64,000 bases of DNA from Actinomycetota bacterium (GTDB lineage Bacteria > Actinomycetota > Thermoleophilia > Solirubrobacterales > JACPNS01), in the NCBI GenBank assembly GCA_016219715.1, contig JACRKX010000024.1, positions 141 to 64,140 of the forward strand. The letters run 5' to 3'. The notes beneath the pieces are model-generated. The model had not been told where the DNA came from. It worked only from the letters and a program-made list of their open reading frames with translations, and searched no databases. Both the position numbers and the translations under genes were made by a program. Positions 3,485-51,383 of this stretch are shown one piece after another; positions within the stretch are counted from its first letter, which is position 1, and each line of letters begins with the position of its first letter.

Positions 3485-4371
3485 CCGAGTTGGACCAGGC
3501 GATTTTTCCCGACACCAAGCGCTCGGCGGTCGATGCCTATCTGGCCGCGATCGACTTCGAAGTTGAGCCGCCGATCGCCGGCGTAGTCGAGGCGATGCGC
3601 TATTCGCTGCTCGCCGGTGGCAAGCGCGTGCGGCCTGTGCTCGCGCTGAGCACGGCCGCGGCACTCGGTCACGACCCCGAGGCGCTGATGCCTTACGCGG
3701 CCGCGCTCGAGCTGGTGCACACCTACAGCCTGATCCACGACGATCTGCCCGCGATGGACGACGACGACCTGCGACGCGGCAAGCCGACGTGCCACGTTGT
3801 CTACGGCGAGAACGTCGCGATCCTCGCCGGCGACGCATTGTTCGCCGAGGCGCTGCGGCTGGTGACCGCGCGGCAGCAGGGCGATCCCGCCGACATTCTC
3901 GCCGCGCTCGACGAGCTGCTGCACGCCACCGGCGCCGCCGGCATGGTCGGCGGCCAGTACATCGACATCGCCGGCGAGGTTCGAACGGCCGAGCAGCTGA
4001 CCCACATGCACCGACTGAAGACCGGCCGACTGATCGGTGCTTCCGTGAAAGGAGCGGCGCTCACGCTCGGTGCACCGCGCGAGACCGTCGACCGCTTGGC
4101 GGAGTTCGCGGCCGAGTTGGGCGTCCTTTTTCAGATCATCGACGATATCCTCGATGTGACCGGATCCGATGCCGACCTCGGCAAGCCGAGTGGCAGTGAC
4201 GAGCGGCACGGAAAGGCCACATATGTAAGCGTCTTCGGTCTCGAGCGCGCCCGTGCGCTTGCCGACGAGAAGCACGATCGCGTGCGCGAACTGCTCGCGT
4301 CGATCGACTTCCGCGGCGACGCCGGCGATCTCAGGTCCGTGAGCGAATACATCTACAGCCGCGATCGCTAG
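3481..4371 (+). CDS. Polyprenyl diphosphate synthase (farnesyl/geranylgeranyl diphosphate synthase type)
   Basis: Both aspartate-rich motifs are present (LIHDDLPAMDDDDLRRGKPT and FQIIDDILD). Located directly upstream of dxs. Confidence 0.9.
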   Translation: MTELDQAIFPDTKRSAVDAYLAAIDFEVEPPIAGVVEAMRYSLLAGGKRVRPVLALSTAAALGHDPEALMPYAAALELVHTYSLIHDDLPAMDDDDLRRGKPTCHVVYGENVAILAGDALFAEALRLVTARQQGDPADILAALDELLHATGAAGMVGGQYIDIAGEVRTAEQLTHMHRLKTGRLIGASVKGAALTLGAPRETVDRLAEFAAELGVLFQIIDDILDVTGSDADLGKPSGSDERHGKATYVSVFGLERARALADEKHDRVRELLASIDFRGDAGDLRSVSEYIYSRDR

Positions 4372-6375: not shown

Positions 6376-6678
6376 GTTCCGACGTCCGGCTTACCGGCCG
6401 GTAGTGAGTGTGCGCCAAATCACACACACATCACACAATCGGACCTACATTATTCCCAGATACGGAAGTCGTCTCCAAGGTTTCAACGGATCGACTCCAG
6501 CGTGGTCAACTCTCTCCCCCCATCGAAGTTGACCGCCGAGACATAGCAGTATCCTCCCCAGAGCAAGGCCCGGCCCAACGCCGGGTCTTCCTCGTTCTCG
6601 AGACGTTTTCGCCACCCGCCAGCCCGTGCCGCGCTGCGCGGTCGCACGCACAGCGGTGCCCGGTCCCGCTTTCGGTGT

Positions 6679-6798
6679 GGCTCTTACATTCAACATCCAA
6701 ACGGATGTTGCCGGCTGCCCGAAGGCGTGCCGACGGTCACATCGCGGCACGTGAATCAAGCGCCAATAACATCCAATCGGATGTTGAATGTCAGAGCC
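6679..6798. repeat. Hairpin-terminated inverted-repeat element, copy A (about 120 bp)
   Basis: Left end: GGCTCTTACATTCAACATCCAAACGGATGTTG. Reverse complement of the right end: GGCTCTGACATTCAACATCCGATTGGATGTTATT. Internal hairpin CGTGCCG-N12-CGGCACG at 6726-6751. The same termini recur at 50178-50371. Confidence 0.8.
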
Positions 6799-6862
6799 GC
6801 TCGGGACCGATGCTCGGGACCTACGCTCGGATAGCGTGCCGATCGAGCCTAAGATCGGCGGC

Positions 6863-7666
6863 ATGGCGAAGCAGCGTGTGGATCAACTTCTGGTCGAGCG
6901 TGGCCTGTTCGAGAGCCGCAGCAAGGCCGCGGCGGCCGTACTGGCCGGCGACGTGTTGCTCGAACGTGGAGGCCGGCGGATCGACAAGCCGGGGCAGATG
7001 GTCGATCCGGCCGAGAAGCTGCGTGTCGCCGAGCGCGAGCGCTACGTCTCGCGCGGTGGTATCAAGCTTGAGAATGCCCTGCGGGCGTTTCCGGCGATCG
7101 AGATCGTGGGCCGCCGCGCGCTCGACGCCGGCGCTTCCACCGGTGGCTTCACCGACTGTCTTCTTCAACGCGGGGCCGATCACGTGATCGCTGTCGACGT
7201 TGCCTATGGCGAGCTGCACATGTCCCTGCGCAACGATCCGCGCGTGACCGTCATCGAACGGCGCAACGTACGTGAACTCGCTCCCGACGAACTTGAATAC
7301 CGGCCCGATCTGATCGTCGCCGACCTCTCGTTCATCTCGCTCGACAAGGTCCTTCCGGCGTTGCTGGGTTGCGCGGCCGAGCGCTTTGACATGCTTGCGC
7401 TCGTGAAACCGCAGTTCGAAGTCGGACGGGAGCGGATCGGCAAGGGCGGGGTCGTGCGCGACCGCGCGGCCCGCGTCGATGCGATCGCCGGTGCGGCCCA
7501 GGCCGCTCGCGATGCCGGATTCTCCGTCGTCGGCGCCTGCTCGTCGGGCCTGCCGGGACCGGCCGGCAACCGTGAGGCGTTCCTCTGGCTGGCCGAGGCC
7601 GGTCGCGCCGGTGCGGCAGACGACTTGCACGCGCTTGCCGAGAGCGTCGAGACGGGCGAGGATTAG
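6863..7666 (+). CDS. tlyA: TlyA-family rRNA 2'-O-ribose methyltransferase (S4 domain + FtsJ-like domain)
   Basis: MAKQRVDQLLVERGLFESRSKAAAAVLAGDVLL (S4 domain), then DAGASTGGFTDCLLQRGA (SAM motif). ATG at 6863 is preferred over the ATG at 6788, which lies inside the repeat hairpin. Confidence 0.85.
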   Translation: MAKQRVDQLLVERGLFESRSKAAAAVLAGDVLLERGGRRIDKPGQMVDPAEKLRVAERERYVSRGGIKLENALRAFPAIEIVGRRALDAGASTGGFTDCLLQRGADHVIAVDVAYGELHMSLRNDPRVTVIERRNVRELAPDELEYRPDLIVADLSFISLDKVLPALLGCAAERFDMLALVKPQFEVGRERIGKGGVVRDRAARVDAIAGAAQAARDAGFSVVGACSSGLPGPAGNREAFLWLAEAGRAGAADDLHALAESVETGED

Positions 7667-24573: not shown

Positions 24574-26019
24574 ATGATGCAGCGGCGGCGTACGGTGGCC
24601 ATGGCGACTCTGGCGGTCCTGGCGACGACTGCCGTGGTGCCGCCGACGGCGGCGGCTCACGGCTTTTTCGACCGCGTCAACCCGCCGATCCCCCAGTGGC
24701 TCTTCATTTGGGCCGCGGCGATAGTCCTGATCGTGTCATTCGTGGCACTGGGCGCGCTGTGGTCGAAACCGAAGTTCGGCGATGGGAACTGGCGTCCGTT
24801 GCCCGCGATCGTCTCGCGCATCCTGACCGGGCGTATCGTCGCCGTGGTCTGCGGCGCGACCGGCGTGGTCCTATTGGCGACGGTCGTGGTGAGTGGTCTG
24901 GCGGGGCGGCAGGTCGTCGAAGACAACTTCGCGCCGATCTTCGTTTACGTCGTCTTCTGGATCGGGCTTGTTCCGCTGAGTGCGTTGTTCGGCGATGTCT
25001 TCCGGGCATTCAACCCGTGGCGCGCGATCGGCCGCGCGACGGCGTCGCTAAGTCGCGCGATCACCGGCAGACCGCTGCGAGCCCGGCGGGCCTATCCGGC
25101 GTGGCTGGGTCTCTGGCCGGCTACCTGCACGCTGGTCGCGTTCGCGCTACTCGAGTACGTCCACTCCGGCGGTATGCAGCCGCGTACGATCGCTGTTGCG
25201 ACGATCGTGTATTCGGTCGTGACGTTTGCGGGCATGGCACTGTTCGGCGTCGACCGGTGGCTGGATCGCGGCGAGGGTTTCTCGGTGTACTTCAACCTGT
25301 TCTCGCGAGTGTCGGTATTCGAGCGACGCGCGGGAACGATCGGATTGCGTCCACCGCTGGCGGGGCTGGCTGGAGTGCGCCCGCTTCCGGGCATATCGGT
25401 ACTACTCGCCGTGATGATCGGCGCGGTCACTTTCGACAGTCTCGGCGAGGGGCCCACCGGACAGGCCGTGATCGCAGATCTTCAGCGGACTGCCGAGTGG
25501 TTCGGTCTGAACACTGTCGCGGCCACGCAGGTGGCGCTCGTCGTTGGACTCGCGGCGGTGATCGCCGCTGTCCTGGGTTTCTATCGCCTGGGGATTGCCG
25601 GCGTACACAGGGTGTGCGGCGGGCCGTCGTCTAAGCAGTTGGCGGTGGAGTTTGCTCCGACACTCGTGCCGATCGCGCTCGCCTATGTCGGCGCCCACTA
25701 CCTGACGCTGCTGTTGTTTCAGGGGCAGGCGATCTTCGCGCTGGCGTCGGATCCGCTCGGAAACGGCAGCGACCTTTTCGGCACCGCCGGCACGATGATC
25801 GATCGCGGTCTCGTCGGCTCGACGACGATCTGGTACATGCAGGTCGGGCTGGTCGTGGTCGGCCATGTGGCGGGATTGATGCTGGCGCATGATCGCGCGC
25901 TCGTTCTGTACCGGAATCCGCGTGATGTGCTGCGCTCGCAGTTATGGATGCTCGGCGTGATGGTCGGATTCACGGTGCTCGCGCTCTGGCTTCTGTCCCA
26001 GGTGAGCGGCTGGGTGTAG
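24574..26019 (+). CDS. Polytopic integral membrane protein of unknown function (paralog B of 607-1959), with cleavable-looking signal peptide
   Basis: 481 aa. N-terminal signal (RRRTVAMATLAVLATTAVVPPTAAA / HGFF), then the same conserved blocks as paralog A. RBS GGACGGAG. Confidence 0.65.
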   Translation: MMQRRRTVAMATLAVLATTAVVPPTAAAHGFFDRVNPPIPQWLFIWAAAIVLIVSFVALGALWSKPKFGDGNWRPLPAIVSRILTGRIVAVVCGATGVVLLATVVVSGLAGRQVVEDNFAPIFVYVVFWIGLVPLSALFGDVFRAFNPWRAIGRATASLSRAITGRPLRARRAYPAWLGLWPATCTLVAFALLEYVHSGGMQPRTIAVATIVYSVVTFAGMALFGVDRWLDRGEGFSVYFNLFSRVSVFERRAGTIGLRPPLAGLAGVRPLPGISVLLAVMIGAVTFDSLGEGPTGQAVIADLQRTAEWFGLNTVAATQVALVVGLAAVIAAVLGFYRLGIAGVHRVCGGPSSKQLAVEFAPTLVPIALAYVGAHYLTLLLFQGQAIFALASDPLGNGSDLFGTAGTMIDRGLVGSTTIWYMQVGLVVVGHVAGLMLAHDRALVLYRNPRDVLRSQLWMLGVMVGFTVLALWLLSQVSGWV

Positions 26020-48668: not shown

Positions 48669-49768
48669 GAGACCCACGCGTAGACGCGCTCGCCAACATT
48701 CTGGTCAACTACTCGACCGGCGTGAAGCCGGGGGAGACCTGTGTGATCCAGAGCGAGGTGGCCGCCGAACCGCTCGTGCAGGCCGTTTACGAAGAGGTGC
48801 TCAAGGCCGGCGGCCTGCCGATCGTGCAGCTGGCGCTGAGCGAGGGCGCTCCGGCGTTTTACAAGTACGCCAACGACGAGCAGCTCACGTGGATCCCGCC
48901 AACCGCGCAGTGGATCGCCGAGAACATCGACACCCGCATCGCGATCATGGCCGACACGAACACGCGCGCGCTCAGCAACGTCGATCCCGAGAAGCAGACG
49001 AAGGTCAGCACGGCGCGCAAGCCGCTGATGGACGCGTCCATGAAGCGCTCCGCCGCCGGCGACTACCGCTGGTCGCTAACGCTGTTCCCGACCAACGCAT
49101 ACGCCTCAGAGGCCGGGCTGTCGCTCTCGGAATACGAGGACTTCTTCTACAACGCCTGTCTCGCCGGCGACCCCGATCCGCTTACGGCCTGGCAGCGCCA
49201 GAGCGACATGGTCAAGAAGCTGGCGGCGTGGATGGAGGGCAAGAAAGAAGTCCACATCAAGGCTCCCGGAACCGACATAACGCTCGGCGTCGAGGGCCGC
49301 ACCTGGATTCCGTGTGTCGGCACGCACAACATGCCCGATGGTGAGTTCTTCACCGGCCCAGTCGAAGACAGCGTCAACGGCGTCGTCGAGTTCAGTTTCC
49401 CGGCCACCTACGGCGGCCGCGAGGTCAGCGGCGTGCGCTTCGAGTTCAAAGACGGCAAGATCGTCGACGCCTCGGCCCAGCAGGGTGAGGATTTCCTGTT
49501 GAAGATGCTCGACACCGACGACGGCTCGCGCCGGCTCGGAGAGCTGGGAATCGGCACCAACTACGGCATTACGACCGGTACCAAGGAGATCCTGCTCGAC
49601 GAGAAGATCGGCGGCACCGTTCACATGGCGATCGGCATGAGCTACCCCGAGAGCGGTGGCACGAACGACTCCGCGATTCACTGGGACATGGTCTGCGACC
49701 TGCGCCAAGGCGGTTCGATCACGGTCGACGGCACCGAGTTGCAGCGCGACGGCAAGTTTCTCGTCTAA
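48665..49768 (+). CDS. M29-family aminopeptidase (AmpS/PepS type)
   Basis: LANILVNYSTGVKPGE... and C-terminal GTNDSAIHWDMV are typical of thermophilic-metalloprotease M29 aminopeptidases. ATGA overlap with pdxT. Confidence 0.8.
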   Translation: MRDPRVDALANILVNYSTGVKPGETCVIQSEVAAEPLVQAVYEEVLKAGGLPIVQLALSEGAPAFYKYANDEQLTWIPPTAQWIAENIDTRIAIMADTNTRALSNVDPEKQTKVSTARKPLMDASMKRSAAGDYRWSLTLFPTNAYASEAGLSLSEYEDFFYNACLAGDPDPLTAWQRQSDMVKKLAAWMEGKKEVHIKAPGTDITLGVEGRTWIPCVGTHNMPDGEFFTGPVEDSVNGVVEFSFPATYGGREVSGVRFEFKDGKIVDASAQQGEDFLLKMLDTDDGSRRLGELGIGTNYGITTGTKEILLDEKIGGTVHMAIGMSYPESGGTNDSAIHWDMVCDLRQGGSITVDGTELQRDGKFLV

Positions 49769-50187
49769 TCGACGACTTCGCTGCGAGCGCGAAGCGCGGC
49801 TCGCCGTTTGCGCAGCATCGCAAGCCCCTGCAAGCGGCGCTCGCCGCCGTGCCGGCCATCGATACCGAGCAGTTCTAGGGTGGCCGGCGCCGGGCTCGGC
49901 GTGGAGCGAAGTTTGGCGGGCTGACGAAGGCTGGCGTCAAGCTCTTGGCGAAGCGCGAGCACTGCGATCAGATCCCACCCGCACGCCCCGACGGCGCGCA
50001 GCACGTTGGCGAAGCTGGGCTCGCGCCGGCCGCTCTCCCAGCGCGCAACGGTCTGTTGCGGAACCCCAAGCCGCCGCGATAGTTCGGCTTGAGAGATGAC
50101 CGATCGCTCCCGTGCGACCCGCACCAGTCTTCCGCCGCCGCCCTCGGCGGTGATGTGGGTTGGACCGATTCCGAGCACCTCGGGCAT
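49765..50187 (-). CDS. XRE-family helix-turn-helix transcriptional regulator
   Basis: ISQAELSRRLGVPQQTVARWESGRREPSFANVLRAVGACGWDL is an XRE HTH. The ATG at 50187 lies inside the repeat terminus and has a poor RBS. An internal GTG at 50124, preceded by GGAAGA, is a plausible true start. Confidence 0.75.
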   Translation of the reverse strand: MPEVLGIGPTHITAEGGGGRLVRVARERSVISQAELSRRLGVPQQTVARWESGRREPSFANVLRAVGACGWDLIAVLALRQELDASLRQPAKLRSTPSPAPATLELLGIDGRHGGERRLQGLAMLRKRRAALRARSEVVD

Positions 50188-50371
50188 TCAACATCCATTT
50201 GGATGTCAGGAGTGAGACGAGTCGCGCCAATTCCGCGACGAGATCGCAACGATCTGCACAGTCACGGTGCCGGGGGCGGGCCAGGGGATCGTCGTGGAGG
50301 CAAGATGCTCGCCGCTCGGCACCATGCCGCTGAGCAAATTCAACATCCAATCGGATGTTGAATGTCAGAGC
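50178..50371. repeat. Hairpin-terminated inverted-repeat element, copy B (about 190 bp)
   Basis: Left end: CCTCGGGCATTCAACATCCATTTGGATGTCAGG. Right end: ATTCAACATCCAATCGGATGTTGAATGTCAGAGC, with a perfect 11-bp stem. The right end is identical over 27 nt to the right end of copy A (AACATCCAATCGGATGTTGAATGTCAGAGC). Confidence 0.8.
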
Positions 50372-50546
50372 ACTGGCGCAATGCCTCGCGCCCTGCGGTC
50401 AACACGACGCGCGCCGAGCGGCGGACGAAAAAAGAAAGTTCGTTCGATTGCATGAAACGATGTATTATTCGCGGCCGTAGCTGGCGCCGTATGCAATAGC
50501 GTCCGCTTCCCCCGTAGATCGTCCCCCAGCCAAGGAGCAGCTGCGC

Positions 50547-51383
50547 ATGTCCGGTTTCGAAGTGTTCAACAACAAAGTCGCCGTCATCACCGGTGCCGCG
50601 TCTGGGCTCGGTCAGGGATTCGCGACCGTGACGGCAGCCAATGGCGCCACGGTCGTTGCTGCCGACATCAATCTCGAAGGCGCGGAGAAGACCGCCGAGC
50701 GCATCACTGCCGCCGGTGGCAAGGCCACGGCGAAGCAGGTCGACGTTCGCGATGCCGCCGCCGTCGCGAAGCTCGTCGATGACGCCGTAGCCGAGCACGG
50801 GCGAATCGACTACATGTTCAACAACGCCGGAATCGCGGTGCAGGGGCCGATGCAGGAGATCCCGATCGAGCACTGGGACGAGATCATCGACATCAACCTA
50901 AAGGGTGTCGTGCATGGCACGTCGGCCGCGTACAAGCACATGTACAAGCAGAAGAGCGGTCACATCGTCAACACTGCCAGCCTCGCTGGCCTGGTCCCGT
51001 CTCCGCTCCTGTCGCCCTACAGCGCGACGAAGTTCGGCGTGGTCGGCTTGTCTGACTCGCTGCGCGTCGAGGCGCAGGGGACGGGCGTGAAGGTCACGGC
51101 GCTGTGTCCGGGATTCATCGAGTCCGGCATTTACGACTCCGCGCGTTACAGCGGCGGACTCAACGCCGAGATCGGGCGTAAGCAGATTCCTCTGATCGTG
51201 CCGCTCGAGGAGGGCGTCGACAAGCTGCTCAAAGGCGTCGTCAAGGAAAAGCGCGTCGTCACGCTGCCGCTGTATGGCTACCTGTTCTGGTACGGCTATC
51301 GCGCCACGCCCGTCGCGGGCATCAAGCTCAGTGGCTTTCTGGCCCGTCGCCAGATGAAGGCGATCAAGAAGGCCGCTAGATAG
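50547..51383 (+). CDS. Short-chain dehydrogenase/reductase
   Basis: VAVITGAASGLGQG, NNAG and YSATKFGVVG motifs. Strong RBS AAGGAG. Confidence 0.85.
   Translation: MSGFEVFNNKVAVITGAASGLGQGFATVTAANGATVVAADINLEGAEKTAERITAAGGKATAKQVDVRDAAAVAKLVDDAVAEHGRIDYMFNNAGIAVQGPMQEIPIEHWDEIIDINLKGVVHGTSAAYKHMYKQKSGHIVNTASLAGLVPSPLLSPYSATKFGVVGLSDSLRVEAQGTGVKVTALCPGFIESGIYDSARYSGGLNAEIGRKQIPLIVPLEEGVDKLLKGVVKEKRVVTLPLYGYLFWYGYRATPVAGIKLSGFLARRQMKAIKKAAR

Follow-up and report, generated by a model that had tools for sequence, protein, structure and literature searches.

The window (the whole stretch of DNA analysed, 64,000 nt) has its closest protein matches, by source name, in Thermoleophilia/Solirubrobacterales. 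A gene for an XRE-family helix-turn-helix (HTH) regulator of 140 amino acids is located at 49765–50187 on the minus strand, with the start codon ATG at 50187–50185. The divergent neighbour is a short-chain dehydrogenase (SDR) gene, identified by Pfam, at 50547–51383. Pfam assigns the XRE protein to HTH_3 (E = 2.8e-11) and HTH_31 (E = 4.3e-9), in both cases with a score that exceeds the gathering threshold. Its best profile matches are phage regulators and HipB/MqsA/RstR-type proteins, all below the family cut-offs. The AlphaFold model is characterized by confident helices at residues 17–88 (pLDDT 86–94), disordered residues 1–15 and 89–118, and a basic C-terminal helix at 114–139 that follows the disordered linker. 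Close relatives of the protein in the protein database number only three, at 78% (L060), 70% (L064) and 56% (L066) identity. All three are syntenic, between an SDR gene and an M29 aminopeptidase gene. The neighbours of XRE are the same in all lineages: the M29 aminopeptidase, pdxT/pdxS, the SDR gene, yebC and ruvCAB. The gene-bearing sample consists of four lineages (the window, L060, L064 and L066), and the outgroups are three.

The window contains the palindrome ACATCC-N4-GGATGT at exactly four places, 6693–6708, 6769–6784, 50191–50206 and 50343–50358. The expectation by chance is 0.07 (dinucleotide shuffles), and none of 100 shuffles contained four. Each palindrome is part of an asymmetric 31-nt unit, GCTCTGACATTCAACATCC-N4-GGATGTTG, defined by alignment of the four window sites and five sites from relatives. 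Across window and relatives, GGATGT is invariant in all nine units and ACATCC is present in eight. The 4-nt centre is variable, with A or T at 30 of 36 positions in the nine units, in a genome of 66% G+C. Invariant half-sites around a variable, A/T-rich centre are the usual signature of an operator of a dimeric HTH protein. Two further motifs lie in the outer arm of the unit: ACATTC, which nearly repeats the half-site and stands 7 bp before ACATCC, and TGA-ATG-TCA, a small second dyad whose counterpart in L066 is GACA-AA-TGTC. To our knowledge the sequence fits none of the LexA-type SOS box, the PafBC/RecA-NDp motif, the dif/Xer site and the ClgR box. A literature search with the half-site sequences returned primer matches only.

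The four units form two inverted pairs, copy A (between dxs and tlyA-nadK-recN) and copy B (between the XRE and SDR genes), with total sizes of 118 and 194 bp. The long conserved arm is directed outward in each unit pair, in relatives as in the window. The interiors are 56 nt in copy A and 131 nt in copy B and are unrelated by sequence comparison. The terminal inverted repeats are 87% complementary over 31-nt arms in copy A and 86% complementary over 28 nt in copy B (pairs I8 and I19 cover both copies). The right unit of copy A and the distal unit of copy B are identical at 30 of 30 positions (6768–6797 and 50342–50371, repeat family D6). Within them GGATGTTGAATGTCAGAGC is identical at 6779–6797 and 50353–50371 and faces a plus-strand gene at both places. 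The initial annotation had described the palindromes, this identical right end and the orientation of the facing genes, and all of these sequence statements are confirmed.

The proximal unit of copy B, CCTCGGGCATTCAACATCC-ATTT-GGATGTCA (50178–50208, plus strand, 45.8 bits), is the proposed autorepression operator. Measured from the XRE ATG, its palindrome has its centre 11.5 nt and its near end 4 nt upstream. The start codon itself (CAT at 50185–50187 on the plus strand) lies within the unit, inside the conserved TTGAATG, so the earlier statement that the left terminus of copy B overlaps the annotated ATG is correct. The distal unit, GCTCTGACATTCAACATCC-GATT-GGATGTTG (50341–50371, minus strand, 55.5 bits), is the proposed auxiliary operator. 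Inside it is a perfect palindrome with 11-bp arms, ATTCAACATCC-AATC-GGATGTTGAAT (50338–50363). The distal unit is 152 bp from the proximal one, centre to centre, and 176 nt upstream of the SDR ATG. L058 and L059, independent Logan assemblies from the same organism, both contain the two palindromes upstream of XRE, and copy B is therefore not an assembly artefact.

An internal GTG at 50124 had been proposed as the real start of the XRE gene, which would have placed the proximal unit about 60 nt upstream of it. The comparison does not bear this out. L060 has GTC at this codon, L064 and L066 have ATC, and the preceding 21 residues are kept in frame with synonymous changes (MSEVLGIGPT...GGG.L.R). 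With no start codon at this position in the orthologues and an N-terminus that is conserved from the ATG onward, the start is the ATG at 50187. An in-frame TGA stop codon directly precedes it.

A short dyad, AGATCG-TTG-CGATCT, is present between the copy B units (50241–50255, minus strand, XRE-sense), in a conserved block of about 40 nt. In a three-lineage alignment its counterparts are GAATTG-CGT-CGATTC in L060 and GAATTG-TCG-CGATTT in L064. Pairing is kept, and the arm changes in L060 and L064 retain it on the XRE-sense strand only. The dyad could belong to the promoter or 5′ UTR of XRE, or be bound by a different factor; with only three sequences the evidence is weak. A promoter scan of the XRE-SDR spacer placed no sigma-70-like promoter, and a hand search for a TANNNT −10 element positioned for a leaderless XRE mRNA revealed none. 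No promoter having been located, the overlap of the proximal unit with the promoter is deduced from the position of the unit at the start codon. An ORF of 46 amino acids between the copy B units (50206–50346, minus strand) was considered and rejected; it is not conserved in L060 or L064. On the SDR side of the spacer, the promoter/leader region 50430–50546 is strongly conserved in all XRE-bearing lineages and recognisable in the outgroup L078. It contains TTGCAT-N7-TGTATTAT and the inverted repeat ATTGCAT...ATGCAAT, to which a separate regulator may bind.

The initial annotation had raised the question of whether orthologues of the gene carry the palindrome upstream. They do in L060 and L064; L066 carries a related, distinct unit instead. 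The layout common to the window, L060 and L064 is one unit over the ATG and one or two upstream, inverted. The proximal unit has the same position relative to the ATG in all three. L060 has three units, a tandem of two distal ones at a distance of 40 bp and a third over the ATG, and L064 has two. The distal unit is thus kept in both lineages, tandem-duplicated in L060, with diverged flanks. In the alignment of the three lineages the intervening DNA differs in sequence and in length, and the units are retained. One half-site is changed in L064, to ACATCG from ACATCC; the change is unpaired and uncompensated. No window-type unit is present upstream of the XRE gene in L066. At the orthologous place L066 has four near-identical copies of GCGTATCGGACATTTGTCAAYCG, one forward and three in a reversed tandem array with a 61–62-bp period (L066 positions 3704–3858). 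The 40-bp tandem in L060 and the 61–62-bp repeats in L066 indicate that the arrays grow by local duplication. The recognition helix is PQQTVARWE in the three proteins that go with the window-type unit (P0001–P0003) and SRQVVNRWE in that of L066 (P0004, 56%). Units that are alike within a genome and differ between genomes in step with the protein behave as repressor and operator do, not as decaying transposon ends.

In the three outgroups, with M29 identities to the window of 91% (L077), 88% (L078) and 82% (L079), the M29 and SDR genes are direct neighbours, separated by 90, 91 and −1 nt. Neither an XRE gene nor a unit is present at the M29-SDR locus of L077, L078 or L079. Within the XRE-bearing clade the M29 identity is at least 95.4%. 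The gene and both units are contained in a lineage-specific insertion of about 650 bp (49769–50425), which extends from the M29 stop codon to the conserved SDR promoter region. The absence of gene and units together from three outgroups points to one insertion, in the ancestor of the gene-bearing group.

The XRE gene has dN/dS values of 0.13–0.26 overall and 0.075–0.15 in the HTH, which indicate a functional gene under purifying selection that is nevertheless fast-evolving. Between the window and L060, dN is 0.17 in XRE versus 0.009 in M29, and dS is 1.25 versus 0.48. The nonsynonymous rate is 15–20 times that of the neighbouring M29 gene, and the synonymous rate is also higher. In XRE codons 2–18 (17 codons only) dS is 0.45 versus 1.4–1.6 in the rest of the gene, a depression at the 5′ end that fits an overlapping constraint at the DNA level. 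On these comparisons the XRE gene and its putative sites entered one Thermoleophilia sub-lineage together and then evolved quickly, in step.

The copy B palindromes are probably the XRE protein's own binding sites and control region. The initial annotation had put them forward as a possible operator pair. As predicted operators they gain support from four properties of the units, which are conserved in position, co-vary with the recognition helix, are absent where the gene is absent and, copy A apart, have no further occurrence in about 186 kb. XRE would be a Cro/CI-type HTH protein that binds ACATCC-N4-GGATGT as a dimer, the half-site centres being 10 bp apart across an A/T-rich, non-conserved centre. 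Occupancy of the proximal unit would block initiation or early elongation of XRE transcription, resulting in negative autoregulation; its palindrome stops 4 nt short of the ATG, which is itself part of the unit, so that a bound protein would stand in the way of XRE expression. The distal unit or units would provide cooperative or stabilised binding. Looping between the palindromes, suggested earlier, is not borne out: the centre-to-centre spacings of 152, 76, 118, 78, 40 and 99 bp have no common helical phase, and phased looping is thus unsupported.

Cro/CI-type autorepressors with multipartite dyad operators are represented by lambda and 434 CI with OR1–3 and OL1–3, which are adjacent 17-bp sites. 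The present locus is similar in the small HTH_3 protein, in two or three dyads upstream of the gene with one at its start, in conserved 6-bp half-sites around a variable A/T-rich centre, in the variable number of sites, and in the joint divergence of repressor and operator specificity. It differs from lambda and 434 CI in that the window XRE has no prophage, Cro partner, peptidase or sensor domain, and in that the predicted sites are asymmetric, inverted 31-nt units 76–152 bp apart rather than adjacent 17-bp operators.

Copy A consists of a left unit, GCTCTTACATTCAACATCC-AAAC-GGATGTTG (6680–6710, plus strand, 54.2 bits), and a right unit, GCTCTGACATTCAACATCC-GATT-GGATGTTA (6767–6797, minus strand, 55.4 bits), which faces tlyA (ATG at 6863). 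It is contained in extra DNA at 6655–6830, between a conserved non-coding element (6396–6600) and tlyA, found in the window lineage only. The dxs-tlyA spacer of the window is longer by about 190 nt than in relatives. No unit is present in the dxs-tlyA spacer of L071/L072/L073, L074, L075, L080 and L081. The closest of these lineages, L071/L072/L073 (from the same samples as L060), does have units at its XRE locus. Absence from five relative lineages indicates that copy A is a recent gain and that tlyA-nadK-recN is not a conserved target. The small regulon including this operon that had been envisaged is therefore not conserved, with units upstream of tlyA in none of the five relative lineages.

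By this comparison copy A is a recent copy of two units, present in this lineage only. The route of copying was possibly MITE- or REPIN-like movement or insertion by recombination. Target-site duplications were not seen at the edges of copy A, where the empty-site boundaries are fuzzy and the spacer has diverged. Segmental duplication of the region upstream of XRE was rejected as the origin of copy A, the interiors and flanks having no significant similarity. The outer flank of the unit and the first eight XRE codons agree at 11 of 16 positions in the best pair, with a faint consensus over the nine units. As a single strand copy A folds into one long hairpin (−75.2 kcal/mol, z = −8.0). If XRE binds the units, tlyA-nadK-recN would newly be under its influence.

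Several further features of this spacer were recorded. A promoter scan upstream of tlyA detected none on the plus strand, the sole match being on the minus strand at 6477–6449. An ATG in the right unit of copy A (ATGTCAGAGCC...) opens the tlyA frame over 6788–6862 and would add 25 residues, MSEPLGTD... The in-frame position is probably due to chance (1 in 3); it would be relevant in the case of a leaderless start within the unit. Outside the right unit, 6798–6835 contains three tandem copies of about 13 nt, GCTCGGGACCGAT, GCTCGGGACCTAC and GCTCGGATAGCGT, which resemble a sequence inside the XRE coding start, GCTCGGAATCGGT. The non-coding element at 6396–6600 (plus strand, about 205 nt) is highly conserved in the window and the five relative lineages. 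It has one internal hairpin with a C-rich loop and compensatory changes, and ends in a GC-rich, terminator-like hairpin that in relatives lies about 30–130 nt before the tlyA ATG. An Rfam search with the element gave no match at E <= 1. The element looks like an undescribed leader of tlyA-nadK-recN (attenuator- or riboswitch-like) or a small RNA. Elsewhere in the window, 932–1948 and 24986–26002, which are 24,054 bp apart, are 78–79% identical (families D4 and D10) and may hold two paralogous genes for membrane proteins.

Further copies were sought in the window, in relatives and in public collections. Position weight matrices for both unit types detected nothing further, either in the window (64 kb) or in the 122 kb of DNA from relatives. 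In the roughly 186 kb scanned, units are thus confined to the upstream regions of XRE genes and to copy A. Occurrence of the element in many unrelated contexts, named earlier as a sign of a MITE, is accordingly not found beyond copy A in 186 kb. Among 185,579 species genomes, ATTCAACATCCNNNNGGATGT has 57 single matches, in unrelated taxa and mostly in coding sequence, none with the GCTCTGAC flank. About 70 chance matches are expected, so the genome scan is uninformative on relatives. In JGI metagenomes the 19-base pattern has two matches, both in the same Bacteroidaceae coding sequence. In IMG/VR the motif is at chance level, and the XRE protein has matches over only 26–30 HTH residues. The exact-pattern scans of genomes, metagenomes and IMG/VR argue against a widespread, high-copy repeat family. 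A plasmid collection contained no DNA match and nothing with unit ends. The best relative of XRE in it, 46% identical, is on a Miltoncostaea megaplasmid and has no comparable repeats upstream. Searches of Rfam with the copy A and copy B loci gave no match.

Bacterial MITEs, such as the Neisseria Correia elements, and REPINs mobilised by RAYT transposases occur in dozens to hundreds of copies per genome. The units may be the ends of such a non-autonomous element with its transposase elsewhere, XRE adjoining an old insertion without binding it; this is rather unlikely. Copy A is similar to these elements in its size (about 120–175 bp), non-coding character, inverted 31-nt repeats each with a palindrome, folding into one long hairpin (z = −8) and presence or absence between close relatives. 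Both pairs, of 118 and 194 bp, are inverted with the long arm outward. Copies A and B share units identical at 30 of 30 positions in one pair and are alike in the units only, not in the interiors, as are MITEs defined by terminal inverted repeats and REP doublets. Asymmetric, outward-oriented units of 31 nt exceed the needs of a simple dimer site and look like terminal inverted repeats. For an old insertion, however, neutral decay is expected, and the units are instead kept at orthologous positions while the interior has diverged; at the XRE gene they are conserved in the manner of functional sites. Within a genome they are near-identical, from one genome to another they change along with the recognition helix of XRE, and their number varies by local tandem duplication (40 bp in L060, 61–62 bp in L066). 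The known elements further differ in copy number and mobility genes: units are present at only two window loci (186 kb scanned) with unrelated interiors, public collections contain no further copies, and no transposase or RAYT is associated with them. The only gene flanked by units encodes an HTH_3 protein, not a Y1_Tnp, Y1/HUH or DDE transposase. The outgroups lack gene and units together, and no target-site duplication is seen at copy A, whose boundaries are fuzzy. The suggestion that XRE acquired a mobile element as its neighbour by chance is accordingly disfavoured for copy B and stays live for the origin of copy A. In view of copy A, of the asymmetric, outward 31-nt units with a near-repeat and a second dyad in the outer arm, and of the failure to place a canonical promoter, the units themselves may have a MITE- or REPIN-like origin.

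A combination of the two readings is also conceivable, if unlikely. The unit pair would be a portable operator cassette, a MITE- or REPIN-like doublet recognised by XRE and copyable elsewhere. If true, the regulator and its mobile sites would co-evolve, and new operons such as tlyA-nadK-recN could be wired in a single step.

The short, XRE-type C proteins of restriction-modification systems (with their C-boxes) and the antitoxins HigA, HipB and MqsA repress their own promoters via overlapping palindromes and are often carried on mobile, fast-evolving cassettes. The present locus shares with them the short XRE protein, the palindromes at its own gene and the cassette behaviour. The block might thus be what is left of a larger mobile or defence module (phage immunity region, controller protein of a restriction-modification system with its C-box, or type II antitoxin with its operator) after loss of the partner genes, with an orphan repressor that still binds its sites and lacks any cellular target, but this is quite improbable. 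The gene is inserted and absent from the outgroups, evolves 15–20 times faster than M29 nonsynonymously and also faster synonymously, and has the below-cut-off profile matches to phage, HipB/MqsA and RstR-type regulators given above. Repressor and site specificity diversify jointly here, as they do in phage immunity regions. Unlike such systems, the locus has no adjacent restriction, methylase or toxin gene in any lineage, no phage gene nearby in the four lineages, and NCBIfam scores far below the cut-offs. The XRE flanks are housekeeping genes, and IMG/VR, with chance-level matches only, contains no related locus or matching motif. Purifying selection acts on the gene in four lineages. The binding mechanism would be the same as for an operator of XRE, and the difference concerns origin and purpose only.

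It is very improbable that the palindromes act in RNA, the proximal hairpin, in the XRE 5′ UTR, exerting translational control by hiding a Shine-Dalgarno-like GGAUG next to the AUG, and the hairpins of the pairs affecting mRNA stability, as the long hairpins of some bacterial MITEs do: the proximal hairpin is separated from the AUG by 4 nt and holds the only purine-rich stretch there, unit pairs fold better than shuffles (z = −8.0, −3.8 and −7.5), and the pairing of the mini-hairpin in the interior is kept via G-U-compatible changes on the XRE-sense strand only, but the unit occurs in both orientations, so that half the copies are read as the complement, the stem is invariant without co-variation, ACATCG in L064 breaks a pair uncompensated, the 12–13 conserved nt outside the stem have no RNA explanation, and no Rfam family matches.

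The locus is most likely that of an ordinary self-regulating repressor, with the exception of the second pair of putative sites recently copied before tlyA-nadK-recN. XRE proteins that regulate themselves through palindromic operators are very common, and no general view is changed. If XRE binds the units, the locus would be a natural example of a repressor gene that arrived with its operators, of a recognition helix and sites that shift in step between close relatives, and of a site pair copied before a conserved operon, which would be useful for studying the growth of regulons.
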